From Bacteroidota bacterium (GTDB lineage: Bacteria > Bacteroidota > Bacteroidia > Bacteroidales > CAIXTV01): a stretch of 50,056 nt of DNA. Positions 4,228 to 50,056 of the stretch are shown here, piece by piece. The notes under the pieces were generated by a model that saw nothing but the letters and a program-made list of their open reading frames with translations, was not told the DNA's origin and did not search any database. The DNA is taken from positions 1-50,056 of the forward strand of contig JBAWXL010000002.1 in assembly GCA_037144095.1 (NCBI GenBank), read 5' to 3'. Position numbers and translations under genes: made by a program. The number at the start of each line of letters is the position of its first letter. The first letter of the stretch is position 1.

Positions 4228-5181
4228 ATGATTAAGAAATTGATTTATAAAATAAAAAAGAATCCATTTCAATACTTTCTATTGAAGTTGCTTGTTTTCA
4301 TTGCAATTGTATTTGTCATTGACTTTGCGGTAGGAAATGTTCTCCGCTACTTATACTTCAAACAAGAAAGTGGCTTACTCTATCGGACTACCTATTCAAT
4401 TGAAAAAACCACTGCCGATGTATTGGTCTTTGGTTCATCAAGGGCCAATCATCATTATCATCCTGAAGTATTAGAAAAACGATTACATCTTTCTTACTAT
4501 AACGTTGGAAGAGATGGTAATTTTATGTTCTATCATTATGCTGTTCTAAAAGGAATTTTGAAAAGATATTCACCTAAACTCATCATTCTTGATTTTGTGA
4601 AAGGTGAATTTAAACCAAGTCAGGAAAGCTACGACCGGCTATCATCATTGCTGCCTTACTATCATAGCCATCCCGAAATGCGATCCATCATCGAACTTAA
4701 AAGCAAATATGAATGGTTGAAATTAGTCTCATCCATCTACCCCTACAATTCTTCAATTTTCACCATAGCTGCCGGTAATGCTGAGTTTAATAAAACAAGA
4801 AAAGGAGACATTCAGGGTTATGTGCCACTCAGCAAAACGTGGAATGGGCCCCTTCAAATTGATAGCAGTTCGACAAATAAAGAAATTGATAGTAATAAAG
4901 TAAACATGTATGCTTCGTTCATTAAGGATTGCATTTCATCGAAAGTAAAACTAATTGTTGTCTGTTCACCTTATTATCACAAATCCCTTCACCCCGATTA
5001 TTCCCTTACATTAGGACAAGAAATTGCAAGAAAATATAATGTTCCCTTCTTCGATTATTCATCGGATTCGATGTTTGTAAATAACGTCAAATATTTTGCT
5101 GATATTAATCATTTGAACGATGGAGGCGCAATGGTTTTTTCAAATATACTTGTTGATAAGATAAGTAAAACGAATGATTGA
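4228..5181 (+). CDS. SGNH-like partner of the MBOAT (AlgJ/AlgX/DltD/PatB-like acyl transfer protein)
   Basis: N-terminal TM anchor. VLVFGSSRANHHY resembles SGNH block I and the C-terminal DINHLNDGG resembles the block V DxxH. Lies immediately after the MBOAT gene. Confidence 0.55.
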   Translation: MIKKLIYKIKKNPFQYFLLKLLVFIAIVFVIDFAVGNVLRYLYFKQESGLLYRTTYSIEKTTADVLVFGSSRANHHYHPEVLEKRLHLSYYNVGRDGNFMFYHYAVLKGILKRYSPKLIILDFVKGEFKPSQESYDRLSSLLPYYHSHPEMRSIIELKSKYEWLKLVSSIYPYNSSIFTIAAGNAEFNKTRKGDIQGYVPLSKTWNGPLQIDSSSTNKEIDSNKVNMYASFIKDCISSKVKLIVVCSPYYHKSLHPDYSLTLGQEIARKYNVPFFDYSSDSMFVNNVKYFADINHLNDGGAMVFSNILVDKISKTND

Positions 5182-5190
5182 TAAGTAAAA

Positions 5191-6177
5191 ATGACTTACC
5201 AAAGAATACAAAACGCTCGTGTACTTGTCACCGGTGGTGCAGGATTTATCGGTTCAAACCTATGTGAGGATTTATTAAATTACAATAATGAAGTTGTTTG
5301 TTTAGATAATTTTTCAACCGGAAGGATTGAGAATATCAAGGATTTTCTTAGCCACAAAAATTTCAATTTAGTAGTGGGTGATATTCGAAATCTTGATGAT
5401 TGTCTAAAGGCAATGGAGGGTGTCGATATCATTCTACATCAAGCAGCCTTAGGTTCTGTTCCACGTTCAATAAACGATCCTATTACAAGTAATGCTGTAA
5501 ATATAAGTGGCTTTTTAAATATATTGGTTGCAGCACGGGATGCCAAAATAAAACGTCTTGTTTATGCCGCAAGTTCTTCTACTTATGGCGACTCACCTAA
5601 TCTTCCAAAAGTGGAAGAAATTATTGGCATACCACTTTCACCTTATGCAGTAACAAAATATGTAAATGAATTGTATGCCCAGGTGTTTTGTTTGAACTAC
5701 GGAATGGATGTTATAGGCTTGCGATATTTCAATGTGTTCGGACGACGACAAAATCCAAATGGAGCTTATGCGGCAGTAATTCCAAAGTTTACAATGTTGT
5801 TAAAGGCACACGAATCACCTTTAATCCATGGAGATGGATCAAATTCACGCGACTTTACTTATATTGACAATGTAATTCAAATGAACCATCTTGCAGCAAC
5901 TACAAAAAACAAAGATGCAGTTGGACAGGTTTTTAATACTGCCGTTGGCGAACGAAATGATTTAAATATGTTAACTCACTATTTGAAAAAATATCTGAGT
6001 GAATATGATTCAGCCATTCAGCAGGTGGAAATTAAATACGGACCTGCAAGGGCAGGAGATATCCCGCATTCACTTGCCAGTATAGATAAAGCTAAAAATA
6101 TGCTAAGTTATAAGCCAACACATAATCTTCAGGAAGGGTTGAAAGAAGCAGTGAAATGGTATTGGAATAATTTGTAA
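5191..6177 (+). CDS. SDR C4-epimerase of the WbpP/TviC type (UDP-GlcNAc/GalNAc(A) 4-epimerase-like)
   Basis: VLVTGGAGFIGSNL, DNFSTGR, SPYAVTKYVNE (YxxxK), LRYFNVFGRRQ. Confidence 0.75.
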   Translation: MTYQRIQNARVLVTGGAGFIGSNLCEDLLNYNNEVVCLDNFSTGRIENIKDFLSHKNFNLVVGDIRNLDDCLKAMEGVDIILHQAALGSVPRSINDPITSNAVNISGFLNILVAARDAKIKRLVYAASSSTYGDSPNLPKVEEIIGIPLSPYAVTKYVNELYAQVFCLNYGMDVIGLRYFNVFGRRQNPNGAYAAVIPKFTMLLKAHESPLIHGDGSNSRDFTYIDNVIQMNHLAATTKNKDAVGQVFNTAVGERNDLNMLTHYLKKYLSEYDSAIQQVEIKYGPARAGDIPHSLASIDKAKNMLSYKPTHNLQEGLKEAVKWYWNNL

Positions 6178-6179
6178 AG

Positions 6180-7208
6180 ATGGATAAACAAAAAATATTA
6201 GTCACAGGAGGAACAGGTTATATTGGTTCTCATACAGTTGTCGAACTGCAGCAAGCAGGTTTCGAAGTTTTCATTATTGATAATTTGTCCAATTCAAATG
6301 TTGCGGTAGTAGATCAAATTGAGAAAATCACAGGAATTCGTCCTTATTTTAAAAAGCTTGATTTATTAGACAAGAAAGATCTCTTTCGATTTTTTAATGA
6401 AAATAAACCATTTGCCGGAATAATACATTTCGCAGCATCAAAAGCTGTGGGCGAATCAGTTGAAAAGCCTTTATTTTATTACGAAAATAATTTGTTGAGC
6501 TTAATTAATTTGCTTAATGCAATGATAGAATTCAACACTTCGAATTTAGTATTTTCTTCTTCTTGCACTGTTTATGGCCAACCAGAAATGCTTCCCGTAA
6601 CTGAAGATTCACCATTATTGCCGGCAACATCTCCATATGGAAACACCAAAAAGATTGCAGAAGATATTATTAAGGATACCGTAAATGCTTATAATGGTTT
6701 AAATTCAATAGCATTGCGTTATTTTAATCCGGTAGGAGCTCATGAATCTGCTTTAATTGGAGAATTGCCAAATGGTATTCCAAATAATTTAATGCCATTT
6801 ATAACTCAAACAGCTATCGGAAAACGTGAATTACTTCGTGTTTTTGGAAATGATTATGATACACCCGACGGAACAGCCGTACGTGATTACATTCATGTGG
6901 TTGACCTTGCAAAAGCTCATATTGCTGCATTAAATCGTCTTTTAAATAATAAATCAAACAGTAAGATTGAATTTTATAATATTGGTGCAGGCAAAGGATA
7001 TTCTGTGTTAGAAGTAGTAAATGCATTCGAAAGCTCAACAGGTGTCACATTAAATTGGAAGTTTTTCCCAAGACGAAAAGGTGACATTGAAAAAATTTGG
7101 GCTGATAGTTCTTTTTCTAACAATATCCTTCAATGGAAAGCAAGTAAAAGCTTAGAAGAAATGGTTCAAAGTGCATGGAAATGGGAAAATACATTGAAAA
7201 ATGAATAA
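6180..7208 (+). CDS. galE: UDP-glucose 4-epimerase
   Basis: ILVTGGTGYIGSHTVVEL, DNLSNS, HFAASKAVGES, SPYGNTKKIAE, RYFNPVGAH, GIPNNLMPFI, GTAVRDYIHVVDLA. Full-length GalE pattern. Confidence 0.9.
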   Translation: MDKQKILVTGGTGYIGSHTVVELQQAGFEVFIIDNLSNSNVAVVDQIEKITGIRPYFKKLDLLDKKDLFRFFNENKPFAGIIHFAASKAVGESVEKPLFYYENNLLSLINLLNAMIEFNTSNLVFSSSCTVYGQPEMLPVTEDSPLLPATSPYGNTKKIAEDIIKDTVNAYNGLNSIALRYFNPVGAHESALIGELPNGIPNNLMPFITQTAIGKRELLRVFGNDYDTPDGTAVRDYIHVVDLAKAHIAALNRLLNNKSNSKIEFYNIGAGKGYSVLEVVNAFESSTGVTLNWKFFPRRKGDIEKIWADSSFSNNILQWKASKSLEEMVQSAWKWENTLKNE

Positions 7209-8184
7209 AAGAGTTTTAGTTACCGGGGCCGACGGTTTCATCGGTTCACATTTAACTGAATTATTACTTGAAAAAGGATATAAGGTAAGAGCTTTATCAT
7301 ATTATAATTCATTTAACTATTGGGGTTGGTTGGAAGATATTTCTACAAATCCAAATTTAGAAGTCGTAACTGGAGACATACGAGACCCGCATTATGTGAA
7401 ACATATAATGAAGGATATTGACATTGTCTTTCATCTTGCTGCATTAATTGCAATTCCCTATTCATATCACGCTCCGGATAGTTATGTCGATACAAATATC
7501 AGAGGCACCTTAAATGTTTGCCAGTCAGCAAAAGAGTTAGGGGGCATCAGGGTGATTAATACTTCAACATCTGAAGTTTATGGAACAGCACAATATGTTC
7601 CCATCGACGAAAAACATCCAAAGCAAGCACAATCGCCATATTCTGCTTCTAAAATTGGAGCAGATGCGATGGCAATGAGTTTTTTTAATGCCTTTAACCT
7701 GCCGGTTACTATTGCAAGACCCTTTAATACGTATGGTCCTCGCCAATCAGCAAGAGCAATTATTCCAACCATTATTTCTCAAATTGCCAGTGGGATGAAA
7801 GAAATTAATTTGGGCGATTTAACACCTACACGTGATTTTAACTTTGTAAAAGATACTTGCAACGGATTTTTAGCTGTAGCTGAATGCAATGAAACAATTG
7901 GAAAAGAAATCAATATTTGTTCTAATTTTGAAATATCAATGGCTGATACCCTCGCTTTGATAAAAGAAATTATGCAAAGCGAGGTCAAATTAATAACTGA
8001 TGAACAACGTATTCGTCCTGAAAACTCTGAAGTGTTCAGGTTGTGGGGCGATAATACACTTTTGAAAAGCTTAACCGCATTCAAACCCGAATACGATATC
8101 AAAAAAGGATTAGAAATCACATGTAATTGGTTTCTGAAAGAAGAAAATTTGAAAAAGTATAAAGCTGGAATTTATAATTTATAA
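7201..8184 (+). CDS. NAD-dependent sugar 4,6-dehydratase/epimerase (LegB-like SDR)
   Basis: VLVTGADGFIGSHLTE, YNSFNYWGWLE, SPYSASKIGAD (YxxxK). Overlaps the galE stop by 8 nt. Confidence 0.7.
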   Translation: MNKRVLVTGADGFIGSHLTELLLEKGYKVRALSYYNSFNYWGWLEDISTNPNLEVVTGDIRDPHYVKHIMKDIDIVFHLAALIAIPYSYHAPDSYVDTNIRGTLNVCQSAKELGGIRVINTSTSEVYGTAQYVPIDEKHPKQAQSPYSASKIGADAMAMSFFNAFNLPVTIARPFNTYGPRQSARAIIPTIISQIASGMKEINLGDLTPTRDFNFVKDTCNGFLAVAECNETIGKEINICSNFEISMADTLALIKEIMQSEVKLITDEQRIRPENSEVFRLWGDNTLLKSLTAFKPEYDIKKGLEITCNWFLKEENLKKYKAGIYNL

Positions 8185-8270
8185 GAGGTCAAGATTAAGG
8201 ATGAGGTTAAGAATAACTTCGATTTTCTGACTTCTTCTCTGTCTTAACCTTTATCGCAACCTTAGCCTCA
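8185..8270. repeat. Left boundary of the hexamer-repeat cassette: GAGGTYAAG-type inverted copies followed by direct CTTAACCT/AACCTTAGCCTC copies
   Basis: 8185..8211 (gaggtcaagattaaggatgaggttaag) matches the reverse complement of 8649..8675 at 22/27 positions (hand alignment). It starts 1 nt after the stop codon at 8184. Confidence 0.75.
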
Positions 8271-8281
8271 ATTTTAATTCA

Positions 8282-8647
8282 ATGTTCAAAAGTTTTTCGG
8301 AAATGCCAATTTGGCAAACAGCACATGAGTTATCAATTGACGTATTTAAAAGGACAACGCATTTGCCTCGTTCTGAAGATTATGGATTAACATCGCAAAT
8401 CCGAAGATCAGCTAATAGTGTATCTGCAAATGTAGCTGAAGCTTTTGGAAGAAGCTCAAGTAAAGATAAAAGTAATTTTTACATTTATGCAAGAGGTTCT
8501 GTTACTGAAACTCAGAACCATTTAATTTATGGCTTAGATGTAGGATATTTTGAAAAACAGGGAGTAGAACTACTCTTAAACAAATACAATGTTTTGATTT
8601 ATGATTTAAATAAGGTTCTAAAAGCCCTATCACAACCCCAACCTTAA
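8282..8647 (+). CDS. Four-helix-bundle protein (23S rRNA intervening-sequence protein / Avd family, PF05635-like)
   Basis: 121 aa. Motifs LTSQIRRSANSVSANVAEAFGR and YIYARGSVTETQNHL are typical of the family. The C-terminal SQPQP runs into the hexamer repeat. Confidence 0.8.
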   Translation: MFKSFSEMPIWQTAHELSIDVFKRTTHLPRSEDYGLTSQIRRSANSVSANVAEAFGRSSSKDKSNFYIYARGSVTETQNHLIYGLDVGYFEKQGVELLLNKYNVLIYDLNKVLKALSQPQP

Positions 8648-8675
8648 CCTCAACCTCAACCTTAACCTCAACCTC
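8633..8675. repeat. Right boundary of the cassette: 7 tandem CAACCT/TAACCT hexamers
   Basis: caaccc caacct taacct caacct caacct taacct caacct c. Ends 4 nt before ATG 8680. Confidence 0.85.
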
Positions 8676-8679
8676 TTGC

Positions 8680-9924
8680 ATGACCAAGTTTCAACCCATC
8701 GTCAACTTTATTCGCAAGACCTTTAACTCTCCGAAGGATTTTATTCCTCTTCATGCCCCCGTGTTCTGTGGAAATGAAAAAAAGTATCTGGAGGAATGTA
8801 TTGACACAACTTTCGTTTCCAGCGTAGGTAAATTCGTCGATCGTTTCGAAGCCATGGTTGCTGAATACACAGGTGCAACAAAAGCTGTTGTTTGCGTTAA
8901 TGGCACGAATGCCCTTCATTTAGCCATGCTACTCTTAGGAGTCAAACAGGATGATGAAGTAATCACCCAGCCATTGACTTTTATTGCAACTTGCAATGCC
9001 ATAAGTTATATTGGAGCCCATCCTGTGTTTGTTGACGTTGATTTAGACACATTAGGTATGTCGCCAAAAGCTTTAAGAAAGTGGCTTGCCGAAAACGTAG
9101 AATTTAAGAATCAGGCTGAGGATAAGGTTAATAATTTCCAATCTCAACCACAACCTCAACCTCAATCTCAACCTCAGCCTCAACCTCAGCCTCAACCTCA
9201 ATCTCAACCTTACAATAAAACCACAGGCAGGCGAATTAAAGCCTGCATTCCAATGCATACTTTCGGGCATCCCTGTCGCATTGATGAGATTGTTGAAATT
9301 TGCAAAGAATATCATATCGAATTAATTGAAGATGCAGCCGAAAGCCTGGGAAGTTTTTATAAAGAAAAGCACACCGGTACATTCGCAAAAATAGCCGCCC
9401 TGAGTTTTAATGGAAACAAAACAATTACAACCGGAGGCGGGGGAATGCTTTTGTTTCAAGACGAAGACTTAGCAAAATCAGCAAAACATCTAACCACACA
9501 AGCCAAAGTTCCCCATCCATGGAATTTCGTTCATGACCAAATTGGCTATAATTATCGCATGCCCAACATAAATGCTGCTTTAGGCTGTGCTCAAATGGAA
9601 CAACTCCCTCAATTTCTCTCAGCCAAACGACAATTAGCTCATCAATACGAACAATTCTTCTCAACCTTAAACTCAACCTCAACCTTTTTCAAAGAACCCC
9701 AAAACGCAAAGTCAAACTATTGGTTAAATGTAATTATTCTAAAGGACAGAGATGAACGTGATGAATTTTTAAAATTCGCCAACGACAATGGAGTAATGAC
9801 TCGTCCTGCCTGGCAATTGATGAATAAATTGCCGATGTTTGTAGATTGTCAATGTGGCGAACTCCCTAATTCAGAATGGTTGGAAGATAGAATTGTAAAC
9901 ATCCCCAGCAGCGCGATAATATGA
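8680..9924 (+). CDS. DegT/DnrJ/EryC1/StrS-family sugar aminotransferase (LegC-like) carrying an in-frame repeat insertion
   Basis: IPLHAPVFCGNEKKYLEECIDTTFVSSVG, LSFNGNKTITTGGGGMLL (PLP Lys region), GYNYRMPNINAALG. The 24-aa QS/QP tract is atypical for the family. Confidence 0.85.
   Translation: MTKFQPIVNFIRKTFNSPKDFIPLHAPVFCGNEKKYLEECIDTTFVSSVGKFVDRFEAMVAEYTGATKAVVCVNGTNALHLAMLLLGVKQDDEVITQPLTFIATCNAISYIGAHPVFVDVDLDTLGMSPKALRKWLAENVEFKNQAEDKVNNFQSQPQPQPQSQPQPQPQPQPQSQPYNKTTGRRIKACIPMHTFGHPCRIDEIVEICKEYHIELIEDAAESLGSFYKEKHTGTFAKIAALSFNGNKTITTGGGGMLLFQDEDLAKSAKHLTTQAKVPHPWNFVHDQIGYNYRMPNINAALGCAQMEQLPQFLSAKRQLAHQYEQFFSTLNSTSTFFKEPQNAKSNYWLNVIILKDRDERDEFLKFANDNGVMTRPAWQLMNKLPMFVDCQCGELPNSEWLEDRIVNIPSSAII
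9139..9210 (+). repeat. 12 tandem hexamers (CAACCT and CAATCT/CAGCCT/CAACCA variants) inside the aminotransferase CDS
   Basis: Read directly. Encodes QSQPQPQPQSQPQPQPQPQPQSQP; the antisense reads (RL)n. An inverted arm GAGGATAAGGTTAA lies at 9118..9131. Confidence 0.95.
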
Positions 9925-10985
9925 TAATTGGAGGAGAACATTTTTTCTCACCTGGCTTTTTGTTCAGAAAATCAAAAGCTTATGTTGACAATTTAATCAA
10001 AGAATTTCAACCAAATTACAAAGTGAATTTTACTTTTGGTGGCTTCTACTCCATTTTAGCCATCATCGACGAAATTAAACCAAAAATGGATGAAGCCTCA
10101 GTCGTTTTATTGCCTTCCTATTTGTGTCCCAGCATATTGTTGCCTTTTAAAATCAGAGGCATTTCCTATAAGTTCTACAAAGTAGATGATGATTTGTTGA
10201 TCGATACCGATTATTTGCTGTCAATTATTGATGAAAACGTAAAAGCAGTATTTTTTGTCGATTATTTTGGGGCGTCCCAATTAGATAGATTACAAGCTGT
10301 ATTAGAAACACTTAGATTAAAAAACATTGCCATCATCCAGGATATAGTTCAATGTCTCGAAATCAAAAATGAATTTTTATTTGGCGATTATATTTTCAAT
10401 AGTTTCCGCAAATTTTTCCCATTCGAAGGCAGCATTATTTTATCTAAAAAAGATATGAATATTAATTATGCTGAAAAAAGAAATATCTTTATAAAACCTA
10501 AGCGGATTGGGCAATTGCTGAGGTATTTTCATATTAAATACAATCTGTTTTCGAGCAAACTTTTCTTAAAATACTTGCATAAAGCAGAAGAAAACTATCA
10601 TCAGGATGGCATTTTCAAAATGCCAAAGTGCAACATAAAGCAGCTTAACAAATATGATGTTCAGCAAATGTCAGCGAACCAAAAGCATTATAGCAATCTG
10701 CTGAAAAATCTCTTCGAGAGCCTACAACCTCGTTTATTACAACACAATAATTTCGTGCCCTTGGGCTTTGTCATTAAGTTGAATAAGCGCGATTTCGTCA
10801 GAATGGAATTGTTCGCTCAAAACATTTTTCCACCCATTCATTGGCTATTAAATGAAGAATTTGACAAGCCTCTTTGCGAAAAAAGCATCCAACTTTCAAA
10901 ATCAATTTTGACCATTCCGCTAATAAATCTGACCAAAGAAAAATACAACTATCTATCCGAAAATCTAATTAAAATATTAAAATGA
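9921..10985 (+). CDS. Divergent DegT-like PLP-fold protein (function unknown)
   Basis: LLPSYLCPSILLPF, FFVDYFGAS...IIQDIVQCL and FNSFRKFFPFEGSIILS loosely parallel the DegT blocks (compare FSFHPRKAITTGEGGMV in ORF 36632). ATGA overlap with the upstream gene. Confidence 0.4.
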   Translation: MIIGGEHFFSPGFLFRKSKAYVDNLIKEFQPNYKVNFTFGGFYSILAIIDEIKPKMDEASVVLLPSYLCPSILLPFKIRGISYKFYKVDDDLLIDTDYLLSIIDENVKAVFFVDYFGASQLDRLQAVLETLRLKNIAIIQDIVQCLEIKNEFLFGDYIFNSFRKFFPFEGSIILSKKDMNINYAEKRNIFIKPKRIGQLLRYFHIKYNLFSSKLFLKYLHKAEENYHQDGIFKMPKCNIKQLNKYDVQQMSANQKHYSNLLKNLFESLQPRLLQHNNFVPLGFVIKLNKRDFVRMELFAQNIFPPIHWLLNEEFDKPLCEKSIQLSKSILTIPLINLTKEKYNYLSENLIKILK

Positions 10986-36631: not shown

Positions 36632-37807
36632 ATGAACATTCCCATTGCCCGCACTTCTTTCAACGAAAAGGATTTCGAAAACATCCTGCAACCTCTTCGA
36701 AGCGGATGGATTGTACAAGGACCTTTTGTAAAGGAATTTGAAGAAAAGTGGGAGAAATTCACCGGAATACCTCATGCGCTTGCCGTTTCAAATTGCACCA
36801 CTGCACTTACCTTATCGGTGTATGCTTTAGGAATTCGTCCGGGCGATGAAGTGATAGTGCCCTCTTTCACATGGATAGCCACTGCCAATGCTGTGGAAAC
36901 CCTGGGGGCAACGCCTGTCTTTTGTGATATTGATTTGGGAAGTTATAATATTAAGGTGGATGAGATTGAAAAGAAAATAACGTCACGCACTAAAGCCATT
37001 ATTCCTGTTCATCTTTTCGGTTTGGCTGCCGAAATGGATGCGGTGATGGAAATTGCCCATAAGTATAATTTGAAAGTTATTGAAGATGCTGCCTGTGGTT
37101 TTGCTGCTAAATATAAAGGAAAGCATGTGGGAGGTATTGGCGATACGGGCTGCTTTAGTTTTCATCCCCGCAAAGCCATCACCACGGGTGAAGGGGGAAT
37201 GGTCACTACAAACGACCCTGAAATGGCTACTCTCCTGCGTTCACTCAGAGACCACGGAGCTGCCACTTCAGATTTACAAAGACATCTCGGCAATAAACCC
37301 TATTTGTTGCCCGATTTCCCTTATGCAGGTTTCAATTTCCGCATGACGGATATACAAGCCTCAATAGGTTCTTCACAAATGGACAGGGCTGAGGAAATAT
37401 TTAACCTTCGTACACTATGGGCTAAGCAATACAACGACTTTCTGGTGAAGCATGATTGGCTGCAACCCACTGTGGTTAAAGAAGATTATGTGCATGGATA
37501 TCAATCCTTCGTGTGTCTTTTTGCTCCTGAAGAAATCACACAACAAAACATGGAAAGCATCCATCAGCAACGGAATGCTTTTATGGATTATCTTCAGCAA
37601 CAGGGTATTTCTACCCGTCCGGGGACACATGCCGTGCATGCATTAGATTATTATAAAAACAAATATCATATTCAGCCTGCTGATTATCTAAATTCACTCA
37701 TAGCAGATCGTTGTAGCATTGCTTTACCTTTGTTCCCGACCATGACTCAGGAAGAATTCGATTATATTGCTTTTCATATCGAGGCATTTAGCAAAAAAAT
37801 TAAATAA
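36632..37807 (+). CDS. DegT/DnrJ/EryC1/StrS-family sugar aminotransferase
   Basis: VIVPSFTWIATANAV, IPVHLFG, IEDAACG, FSFHPRKAITTGEGGMV, NFRMTDIQASIG. Confidence 0.88.
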   Translation: MNIPIARTSFNEKDFENILQPLRSGWIVQGPFVKEFEEKWEKFTGIPHALAVSNCTTALTLSVYALGIRPGDEVIVPSFTWIATANAVETLGATPVFCDIDLGSYNIKVDEIEKKITSRTKAIIPVHLFGLAAEMDAVMEIAHKYNLKVIEDAACGFAAKYKGKHVGGIGDTGCFSFHPRKAITTGEGGMVTTNDPEMATLLRSLRDHGAATSDLQRHLGNKPYLLPDFPYAGFNFRMTDIQASIGSSQMDRAEEIFNLRTLWAKQYNDFLVKHDWLQPTVVKEDYVHGYQSFVCLFAPEEITQQNMESIHQQRNAFMDYLQQQGISTRPGTHAVHALDYYKNKYHIQPADYLNSLIADRCSIALPLFPTMTQEEFDYIAFHIEAFSKKIK

Positions 37808-49558: not shown

Positions 49559-49640
49559 AGCAATAGGCGGCAAAAGTAATAAAAATATTTAAAATACAAA
49601 GAAAATATTTTTTTTCTACAATTAATGATGCAGAAAAGAG

Positions 49641-49960
49641 GTTTAGCTGTTTAGATAACTAGACTTTTAGCTGTTTAGACATTTAGACTTTTAGGAAGAA
49701 GCTCCAAACCTACCAGGTTTCCAAAACCTGTTAGGTTTTTTTAAAAAGGTTGAAGGCTATTAGGCTGTAGACTGAAGTAAGCTAATAGACTTTTAGCTGT
49801 TTAGTCATTTAGGCTTTTAGGAAGAAGCCCCAAACCTACCAGGTTTCCAAAACCTGTTAGGTTTTTTTAAAAGACTGAAGGCTATTAGGCTGTAGACTGA
49901 AGGAGGCTAATAGACTTTTAGCTGTTTAGACTTTTAGGCTTTTAGGAAGAAGCCACAAAC
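49641..49960. repeat. About 2.4 tandem copies of a 125-126-bp unit containing TTTAG-rich short repeats and two AAACCT..AGGTTT hairpins
   Basis: Copies start at 49660, 49786 and 49911. Hairpins in copy 1: AAACCTaccAGGTTT (49706..49720) and AAAACCTgttAGGTTTT plus T-run (49723..49742). Confidence 0.9.
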
Positions 49961-49974
49961 ACTACACTCTTTGG

Positions 49975-50056
49975 AATTTGAAATTTGAAATTTGGGTCTT
50001 TGGACTTCTTTACTATTAACCCAATAACCTATTAACTTAATAACCAATAATTATCA
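49975..50056. repeat. Short-period repeats at the window edge: AATTTGA x3, then an 8-nt-period TATTAACC/CAATAACC tract
   Basis: 49975..49995 holds three heptamers. 50014..50053 holds five related octamers. Truncated by the window end. Confidence 0.6.

Follow-up and report, generated by a model that had tools for sequence, protein, structure and literature searches.

A Probable Palindromic Hexamer Element in Frame in a Bacteroidota legC Gene and Candidate Hot Spots of Repeat Turnover in LegC Aminotransferases

The legC gene of a Bacteroidota bacterium, which encodes a sugar aminotransferase of the LegC family, carries in frame a tract of CAACCT-type hexamers that is probably part of a palindromic element comparable to the Rickettsia palindromic elements (RPEs) and a passenger in a permissive loop of the enzyme; the loop that holds the tract (site 1) and a second, more C-terminal loop (site 2) are likely to be hot spots of repeat turnover within one clade of legC genes. 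The gene (8680–9924, plus strand) was studied in a window that comprises the entire 50,056-bp contig C2 (JBAWXL010000002.1) of an assembly of 471 contigs, 4.70 Mb, and 36% G+C. We hypothesize that the Q-P/Q-S tract represents the 3′ arm of a palindromic element of the form (GAGGTT)n–short loop–(AACCTC)n, of which the 5′ arm would have decayed in the lineage of the window to ~19 nt and the 3′ arm would have grown to 12 units by replication slippage. The element would be tolerated as a passenger and not serve as a functional part of the enzyme, selection acting only to keep the frame open, and sites 1 and 2 would be recurrent sinks at which the small repeats of the host genomes have been inserted, expanded, replaced, and deleted many times within a single LegC clade.

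A Hexamer Tract in Frame in an Intact Gene

Tandem Repeats Finder (TRF) places the tract at 9139–9210 on the plus strand (period 6, 12.0 copies, 83% matches, score 102, consensus CAACCT), where it forms an expanded right arm of 12 CAACCT-type units that is read as a 24-residue tract, QSQPQPQPQSQPQPQPQPQPQSQP. With at most one mismatch allowed, CAACCTCAACCT has 17 matches in the window where shuffled sequences lead one to expect 0.14, and all 17 are confined to three places (8633–8674, 9145–9210, and 9674–9685). On the 5′ side of the tract lies a decayed left arm (AGGCTGAGGATAAGGTTAA, 9113–9131, plus strand, read as QAEDKVN), an inverted remnant of 14–19 nt that includes GAGGATAAGGTTAA at 9118–9131; it holds the place of the (GAGGTT)n arm of the orthologs, read there as EVKV, and pairs with the tract in the minimum free energy fold. 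The fold of 9097–9213 reaches −19.5 kcal/mol (z = −3.6, with 1 of 200 shuffles as stable) and contains a stem of 9 + 5 bp in which 9113–9121 and 9125–9129 are paired with tract units. Among those of its orthologs the window hairpin is intermediate, its left arm being decayed and its right arm long. Inside the tract the 12-nt sequence CAACCTCAGCCT occurs twice in tandem and CAATCTCAACC three times, which is the pattern expected from slippage of blocks of one or two units; growth by slippage would fit both the duplicated CAACCTCAGCCT and the sister gene, which keeps only CAACATCAACCT.

Site 2 holds a further in-frame patch (TCAACCTTAAACTCAACCTCAACCT, 9661–9685, plus strand; TRF row 9660–9685) that is read as STLNSTST, is encoded in the ACC-TCA frame of the CAACCT-type unit, and consists of one arm only. 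The initial annotation of this DNA had described both features, and its coordinates and sequences are all correct, as is its account of twelve hexamers in frame (TRF and the open reading frame [ORF] 8680–9924 agree on this); the identity that it proposed between the tract and the intergenic arrays is borne out far above chance. The inverted arm to which it attributed a hairpin logic is present and folds, surviving only as a short, decayed arm, and the second patch lies where it was placed and is to be described as a one-armed array without a hairpin.

The gene that carries these repeats is intact. Its ORF encodes 414 residues without internal stops, and the product matches the Pfam family DegT_DnrJ_EryC1 (PF01041; 1.4e-88) in two stretches broken by the tract; it also scores 550.4 bits, again in two stretches around the tract, against a cut-off of 420 for NCBIfam TIGR04181 (LegC family aminotransferase), which makes it a member of this family of pyridoxal 5′-phosphate (PLP)-dependent sugar aminotransferases. 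Every invariant alignment column is kept, including SFNGNK, the PLP lysine motif. Full length, a score above the family cut-off, and retention of the invariant residues together show a living and not a decaying gene, so that the pseudogene that the initial annotation had named as one way for its reading to fail is not what is found here. The choice of units within the tract is a modest further sign that it is translated in a living gene: the stop-encoding variant TAACCT makes up none of the 12 tract units and 32 of the 122 units (26%) in the other arrays of the genome (binomial p ~0.03). TAACCT is also absent from those arms of the orthologs that are read in the Q-P frame, where TTACCT, TTGCCT, AAACCT, and similar variants are used.

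Two Clades and Two Variable Loops

The phylogenetic setting of the insert was examined in a homolog set that consists of the best 120 of at least 8000 matches (lengths 379–456 residues), related by an approximate FastTree phylogeny of 357 columns in which both loops were masked and the root was placed at the midpoint. The 120 homologs fall into two clades, each with a support of 0.96. Clade I, which makes up about half of the set, some of its proteins bearing the names Odoribacter and Petrimonas, has loops of fixed length (6 residues of the VKGGEC type at site 1 and 7 residues at site 2), whereas in clade II, which holds the window, site 1 ranges from 5 to 48 residues and site 2 from 7 to 39. 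The insert occupies the same codon position throughout clade II, again about half of the 120 homologs, with several members of the clade lacking any insert. Roughly 30 clade II members, spread over all of its subclades, read ...E-V-K-V-E-V-K... and/or ...S-Q-P-Q-P-Q-P at site 1, and loops of the basal type, such as IKDGQT, are nested inside the clade. In the sister of the window gene, P0002 (79% identity), site 1 is reduced to TTT CAA CAT CAA CCT TAC, and the paralog within the window (36632–37807, 27% identity) has only ...IEKKITSRTKAIIPVH at the position of the tract.

By these alignments the tract is an insertion, whether the basal LegC loop or the two nearest DegT structures that have been solved are taken as the reference. 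The short loop that the initial annotation had reported for the paralog is confirmed, and the comparison that it had proposed, an alignment of orthologs together with a structure model, finds the tract to be inserted into a predicted surface loop when clade I is taken as the reference (see below). Where it could be read as describing an expansion private to this genome it does not hold, because this codon position is occupied by an insert in about half of the 120 homologs. It had further held that a Q/P-rich linker in the orthologs, unrelated to the hexamers, would speak against it; such linkers do exist in clade II, so that this objection is half borne out, and at the DNA level they are the same hexamer element.

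Further scans of contigs from genomes and metagenomes yielded mostly clade I genes with short loops and added few examples of hairpins. As a separate observation, two sister LegC proteins (P0027 and P0073) carry 21 additional residues (SPHEISSENKTGLNKATISRG) at a third insertion site, between GSFY and KGQHTG (alignment columns ~257–277).

The Insert Is a Hairpin of the Hexamer in Orthologs

DNA was obtained for ten clade II genes, mostly from short metagenome contigs. At site 1 the orthologs show, in frame, the arrangement (GAGGTT/AAGGTT)n–short loop–(CAACCT/TAxCCT-free variants)n, which yields a protein segment of the form EVKV...QPQP; more generally the element is read as (E/K)V...(Q/S/K)P, and the length of the insert is always a multiple of three. 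Many orthologs retain both arms, and the predicted stems are strong in L081 (141 nt, −53.2 kcal/mol, z −4.5), L174 (−25.8 kcal/mol, z −5.1), L176 (−28.0 kcal/mol, z −4.9), L084 (−37.6 kcal/mol, z −3.3), and L177 (−30 kcal/mol, z not computed), and the hairpin is decayed in L082 (z −1.1), L173 (z −1.6), and L175 (z −0.35). A palindromic element lies in frame in a functional gene, at a position predicted to be on the protein surface, with ortholog hairpins of −25 to −53 kcal/mol of which the window retains a remnant. Site 2 is one-armed throughout the genes examined and forms no hairpin; its ACCTCA/ACCTTA units are read as T-S/T-L or L-N, and in the orthologs the site often consists of runs of S, T, L, and N. 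Since the unit is a multiple of three, the copy number can change without a frameshift, as in coding microsatellites, and the prediction of the initial annotation to this effect agrees with the orthologs, in which changes in length come in multiples of the unit.

Turnover and Foreign Repeats at Both Loops

Turnover at these loops is fast, close relatives being separated either by indels that are multiples of the unit or by an entirely different insert. P0023 and P0063, which are 95% identical outside the loops, have different inserts at site 1; P0014 and P0101 (90% identical) are set apart by 12 nt at site 1 and by 30 nt at site 2; and in P0020 and P0055 (86% identical) the inserts belong to different repeat families. 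The occurrence of different inserts in near-identical genes implies several independent events of colonization or replacement, irrespective of how the hexamer element itself has evolved. Other insert types found in clade II include SPFGGIEGG / PPWGDLGG, NxST, NKEPRT arrays, and ERSRS, the last being encoded by GAGCGAAGTCGAAG-like palindromes.

Two such foreign inserts proved to be repeats that are dispersed in the genome of the respective host. The gene of G035 holds at site 2 the sequence TGCCTGCCGGCAGGCAGG, which has 15 forward and 14 reverse matches in its own genome at up to two mismatches (control 0); the pattern, being a palindrome, is counted on both strands at most places, and the 29 strand-wise matches correspond to ~18 places. 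At site 1 of the Anaerophaga thermohalophila gene, TGGGGGGATTTAGGGGGC is nested in the right arm and occurs in its own genome 6 times exactly and 13 times at up to one mismatch, these being the only counts used, as the reversed-pattern control is nearly identical to the pattern. In L086, a 13-nt run (AAACTTATAAACC) is common to site 1 and to the right arm of the adjoining cassette. The presence of unrelated repeat families in the same two loops of other orthologs suggests that the phenomenon is one of paired, recurrent hot spots of insertion and turnover, wider than the initial annotation had described.

The genome of the window itself contains 20 copies of a palindromic motif, GAGCG(N)AGTCGA(R)G (C11 30–680 and elsewhere); an element of this kind is read in frame as ...ERSRS... 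in other LegC genes, at their site 2, and is also present 5′ of legC in L178. We also considered the repeats as breakpoints of recombination, and this idea is unsupported: N-terminal, middle, and C-terminal identities over all pairs give mild outliers only, and P0058, the clearest mosaic, has its switch near residue 280 and not at site 2.

Predicted Structural Position of the Loops

The AlphaFold2 model of the window protein (mean predicted local distance difference test [pLDDT] 82, predicted template modeling score 0.84) is predicted to adopt the fold of fold-type I sugar aminotransferases, the top matches in a fold search being 7b0m, the GDP-perosamine synthase 3dr4/3bn1, and PglE 4ztc (E ~1e-32). 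Residues 147–172 have a pLDDT below 50 and lie between strand 140–143 (followed by a short helix, 145–149) and strand 176–179, and site 2 comes after the model helix 309–329. In two alignments compared, 7b0m and 3bn1 do not align to LegC over roughly residues 131–184, which suggests that the basal LegC loop is already a family-specific β-hairpin with the repeat at its tip. The tract is therefore predicted to occupy a disordered surface loop at the tip of a β-hairpin.

A Dispersed Hexamer Family

The hexamer is not confined to legC. In the genome of the window there are 24 arrays of at least three units at ~17 loci, which are mostly intergenic, and several of these stop 4–14 nt short of a start codon (CAACCT orientation) or come after a stop codon (AGGTTG orientation), so that the hairpin would set the stop of one gene beside the start of the next. 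This rule of orientation is seen in the window at 8187–8213 and 8633–8675, in contigs C104, C3, and C295 of the same genome (G000), and in L180 and L195; in other genomes arrays lie just 5′ of start codons, as at rmlA in L195 and at a gpsA-like gene in L180. Across 401 sampled Bacteroidota genomes, a four-unit pattern with at most one mismatch is found in 12 (10 of 180 genera), the reversed control giving almost none, and the genomes that carry it usually hold many copies.

Two more genes of the window's genome have arrays in frame. The first is a 446-residue ORF (C328, 1618–2955) with a lysine-rich C-terminal tail (...KVEVKVEAKAEVEVKK...) encoded by the AGGTTG orientation, which by sequence motifs looks like a glycoside-hydrolase-57-like enzyme. 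The second (C295, 4237–5070) is a MORN-like secreted protein with the array in its signal peptide (MKKIICFCFSTLTSTLTLTLTSTLILTSTLTLTSTSTFAQQ), where 14 CAACCT/TAACCT units give 28 residues of (TLTS)n; a further 14-unit array lies at 5177–5260 on the same contig, 14 nt before the ATG of the next gene. Elsewhere, SQPQSQSQP is read in frame in an RmlB-like dTDP-glucose 4,6-dehydratase, just before YHVSTDEVFG (L181, G083:C12, array 1128–1151), a 10-unit array lying 360 nt away, and in-frame tracts of the hexamer are also present in L192 and L197. Arrays of an 8-nt TTTAGNCT-type unit adjoin CAACCT arrays in the window (49640–50050), in C9 (~10110–10167), in C152 (~5530–5584), and before both arrays of C295, which suggests composite blocks of simple repeats. 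Neither this hexamer family nor in-frame hot spots of repeats in LegC came up in a full-text search of the literature.

The legB–legC Junction and Its Cassettes

Upstream of legC lies legB (7201–8184, plus strand), assigned to the NAD-dependent 4,6-dehydratases by NCBIfam TIGR04180 (511.7 bits against a cut-off of 475), and the two genes are separated by a small cassette. Its left arm (GAGGTCAAGATTAAGGATGAGGTTAAG, 8187–8213, plus strand) is found just 3′ of the legB stop codon, its right arm (8633–8675, plus strand; TRF and pattern scan) consists of 7 CAACCT/TAACCT units and ends 5 nt before the legC ATG, and between them is a gene for a four-helix-bundle protein of the family 23S_rRNA_IVP (8282–8647, plus strand; Pfam PF05635, 1.2e-30). 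In unit and orientation the right arm agrees with the tract within the gene. A PF05635 cassette with hexamer arms stands between legB and legC in the window, L081, and L177; of the genome's 13 PF05635 genes, the one in the window is the only one with CAACCT arms.

A second type of cassette with other arms occupies the same operon junction elsewhere: in the legB–legC spacers of L083 (3503–4000), L084 (2455–3000), and L174 (1403–2000), and 5′ of legC in L091, a PDDEXK_3 gene (PF13366) flanked by CCACAAAT / ATTTGTGG-type runs replaces the IVP gene. We asked whether the type of the in-gene insert follows the arms of the adjacent cassette, which is true in the window, L081, L177, and L086 and is no strict rule; it fails in L083, L084, and L174, where PDDEXK_3 cassettes with ATTTGTG arms stand beside hexamer or other inserts, and L176 has no cassette.

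In orthologous loci the genes downstream of legC encode NeuB, a PglD-like protein, and a nucleotidyltransferase, and this gene content places legC in a putative legionaminic-acid-type pathway. Two metagenome contigs differ in having a DarT/macrodomain pair (DarTG-like toxin–antitoxin) immediately 3′ of legC (L081, 2453–4130; L082, 1797–3474). In an Acetofilamentum sp. metagenome-assembled genome (MAG), a LegC homolog (L045, 3001–4369) is broken after ...HDVVAYN by ~230 nt of noncoding sequence and resumes in another frame; the interruption may be a miniature inverted-repeat transposable element (MITE), an intron, or an assembly error.

Alternative Explanations

Several observations weigh against the interpretation of the tract as an RPE-like passenger in a hot spot of turnover. 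A single entry at the base of clade II fits the identical frame and boundaries in all orthologs at least as well as repeated insertion does; pointing instead to many entries, or to re-seeding, are the near-consensus hexamers and intact stems in deeply diverged lineages, the basal-type loops (IKDGQT) nested in clade II, and the patchy distribution of the family across genomes. The inference of clades rests on a FastTree phylogeny of 357 columns with a midpoint root, drawn from the best 120 of at least 8000 matches. No transposase is linked to the arrays (the two Y1_Tnp genes of the genome are both away from any array), and a target-site duplication is unrecognizable within a hexamer array. Hairpins are kept in lineages that are ~68% identical in protein, which is hard to square with pure neutrality and could reflect selection on RNA or DNA structure. 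Finally, the window hairpin is weak, so that the tract could today be called a plain coding microsatellite. A related view, which we regard as improbable, is that the LegC loops are structure-targeted integration hot spots, in which small palindromes of Bacteroidota, and perhaps the hairpin-bounded cassettes with the same arms that resemble intervening sequences (IVSs), insert preferentially into existing hairpins. One ancestral in-frame hairpin would then have served as a landing pad that was re-colonized, nested into, and overwritten by the palindromes of each host, and, if true, this would mean that an attC- or REP-like (repetitive extragenic palindromic) mechanism of sequence-independent insertion acts inside coding sequence.

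The persistence of stems also invites the explanation that a (GAGGUU)n/(AACCUC)n stem is selected in the mRNA of the leg operon, of which the window tract would be the remaining arm, as a functional RNA or DNA hairpin, for example a site of RNase III-type processing or stability comparable to the stems of intervening sequences in rRNA, or a translational pause. Strong stems are retained in orthologs that share only ~68% of residues, the IVP cassette is bracketed from stop codon to start codon by the same arms, and the unrelated palindromes in the same loops of other genomes would have the formation of a hairpin as their shared property. We nevertheless consider such a function unlikely: clade I LegC proteins and several clade II members do without the insert, decay of the hairpin is seen in L082, L173, and L175 as well as in the window (z −0.35 to −3.6), site 2 has a single arm only, and an Rfam scan returned only sub-threshold eukaryotic noise. 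The chances seem slimmer that the in-gene hairpin is a docking site or scar, that is, an empty attachment site or excision footprint of IVS-like cassettes with the same hexamer arms. The legB–legC cassettes of the window, L081, and L177 do have arms of identical kind, the site-1 insert of L086 matches the right arm of the adjoining cassette, and the spacers of L173 and L175 hold a solo left arm without a cassette gene. A cassette in the site-1 loop would, however, split the enzyme, and no case of a terminal left arm with a cassette gene behind it occurs among the best 120 N-terminal LegC fragments (obtained with a 150-residue query), these being truncations at contig ends or frameshifts. In addition, legC genes with hairpins stand beside PDDEXK_3 cassettes with other (ATTTGTG) arms or beside no cassette at all (L084, L174, and L176), and CAACCT arms are present at a mere 1 of 13 IVP genes of the genome.

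The remaining explanations carry little weight. That the Q/P-rich (and E/K/V-rich) segment is a flexible arm under selection at the protein level, with its likeness to the repeat secondary, would account for the recurrence of a Q/P-rich segment at this position in many homologs of clade II; we think this very improbable, given that its length varies from 5 to 48 residues, that close relatives have unrelated sequences in its stead, that the segment is predicted to be disordered and is missing from clade I, and that what is conserved is the DNA hexamers and the complementarity of the arms and not the peptide. Least probable of all is an artefact or decay, either a misassembled repeat in a MAG contig or an incipient pseudogene. 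The assembly is one of 471 contigs, and a relative, P0134 (a 184-residue fragment on a 12.5-kb contig), is frameshifted right after its QP tract (NVEFKSPPQPKPQPQPQPLSQP...), but the window array is short (72 nt), the ORF is intact with all conserved residues kept and a score above the family cut-off, and equivalent tracts recur in many independent assemblies. The frameshift in P0134 may itself stem from erroneous sequencing of the repeat or mark a genuine inactivation.

Comparison with Known Repeat Systems

RPEs are elements of 100–150 bp with a conserved family sequence that belong to an alphaproteobacterial genus, and they were reportedly described by Ogata and colleagues in 2000 as lying in frame inside functional genes. 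The LegC element is like them in being a small, dispersed palindrome that is both intergenic and in frame, is translated and predicted to be surface-exposed, and leaves the host protein undestroyed, and the comparison with RPEs offered by the initial annotation is apt as an analogy. It differs in that its arms are variable-number arrays of a 6-nt unit, whose length would change by slippage, in its Bacteroidota host, in that the same arms also bracket gene cassettes, and in that several unrelated repeat families have entered the same two loops of a single enzyme family; the likeness is therefore one of behavior and not of membership. With IVSs and their PF05635 genes the element shares the architecture of a hairpin stem and the hexamer found in the arms that flank the PF05635 gene 0.5 kb upstream, but it has a short loop without a gene and lies in a coding frame and not in rRNA, and it is thus no such cassette. 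Like REPs and bacterial interspersed mosaic elements (BIMEs; GTAG/CGTC-tagged REPs, PMC3733652), the hexamer palindromes are short, dispersed, and often found at operon junctions; unlike them, they have no GTAG or CGTC head, have arms of tandem hexamers, and occur within genes and in frame, which sets them outside the definition.

Compared with MITEs, inverted arms are present, the insert varies widely in length (5–48 residues), and a target-site duplication is unrecognizable within the 6-nt repeat. The copy number differs among close relatives as in coding microsatellites or variable-number tandem repeats, but here the array is the arm of a palindrome from a dispersed family, and the host is a cytoplasmic biosynthetic enzyme and not a surface protein. 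Nor is the tract a contingency locus (a phase-variable repeat), since the unit is 6 nt and all observed differences in length keep the frame, with no on/off switching. Palindromic amphipathic repeat coding elements (PARCELs) are likewise coding repeats with dyad symmetry in the DNA and a patchy distribution; they are, however, 25-residue domain repeats that form whole ORFs of unknown function and not short inserts in the loops of an enzyme.

Implications

The in-frame colonization of working genes by palindromic repeats has classically been a Rickettsia curiosity. The Bacteroidota case would represent the same outcome reached with a different element, hairpins whose arms are arrays of a 6-nt unit. 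For annotation, it accounts for the odd low-complexity segments of the EVKV, QPQP, and STLTST kinds in LegC proteins and for many frameshifted or truncated legC calls in metagenomes. The family also offers a natural experiment, in which two loops of a single enzyme family have taken at least four or five unrelated repeat families in dozens of lineages with the enzyme left intact. It may thereby provide a mapped pair of permissive sites in LegC for engineering, a means of measuring the pace at which repeats are gained, expanded, and lost, and a concrete system in which to study the movement of small palindromic repeats and of the IVS-like cassettes with the same arms.

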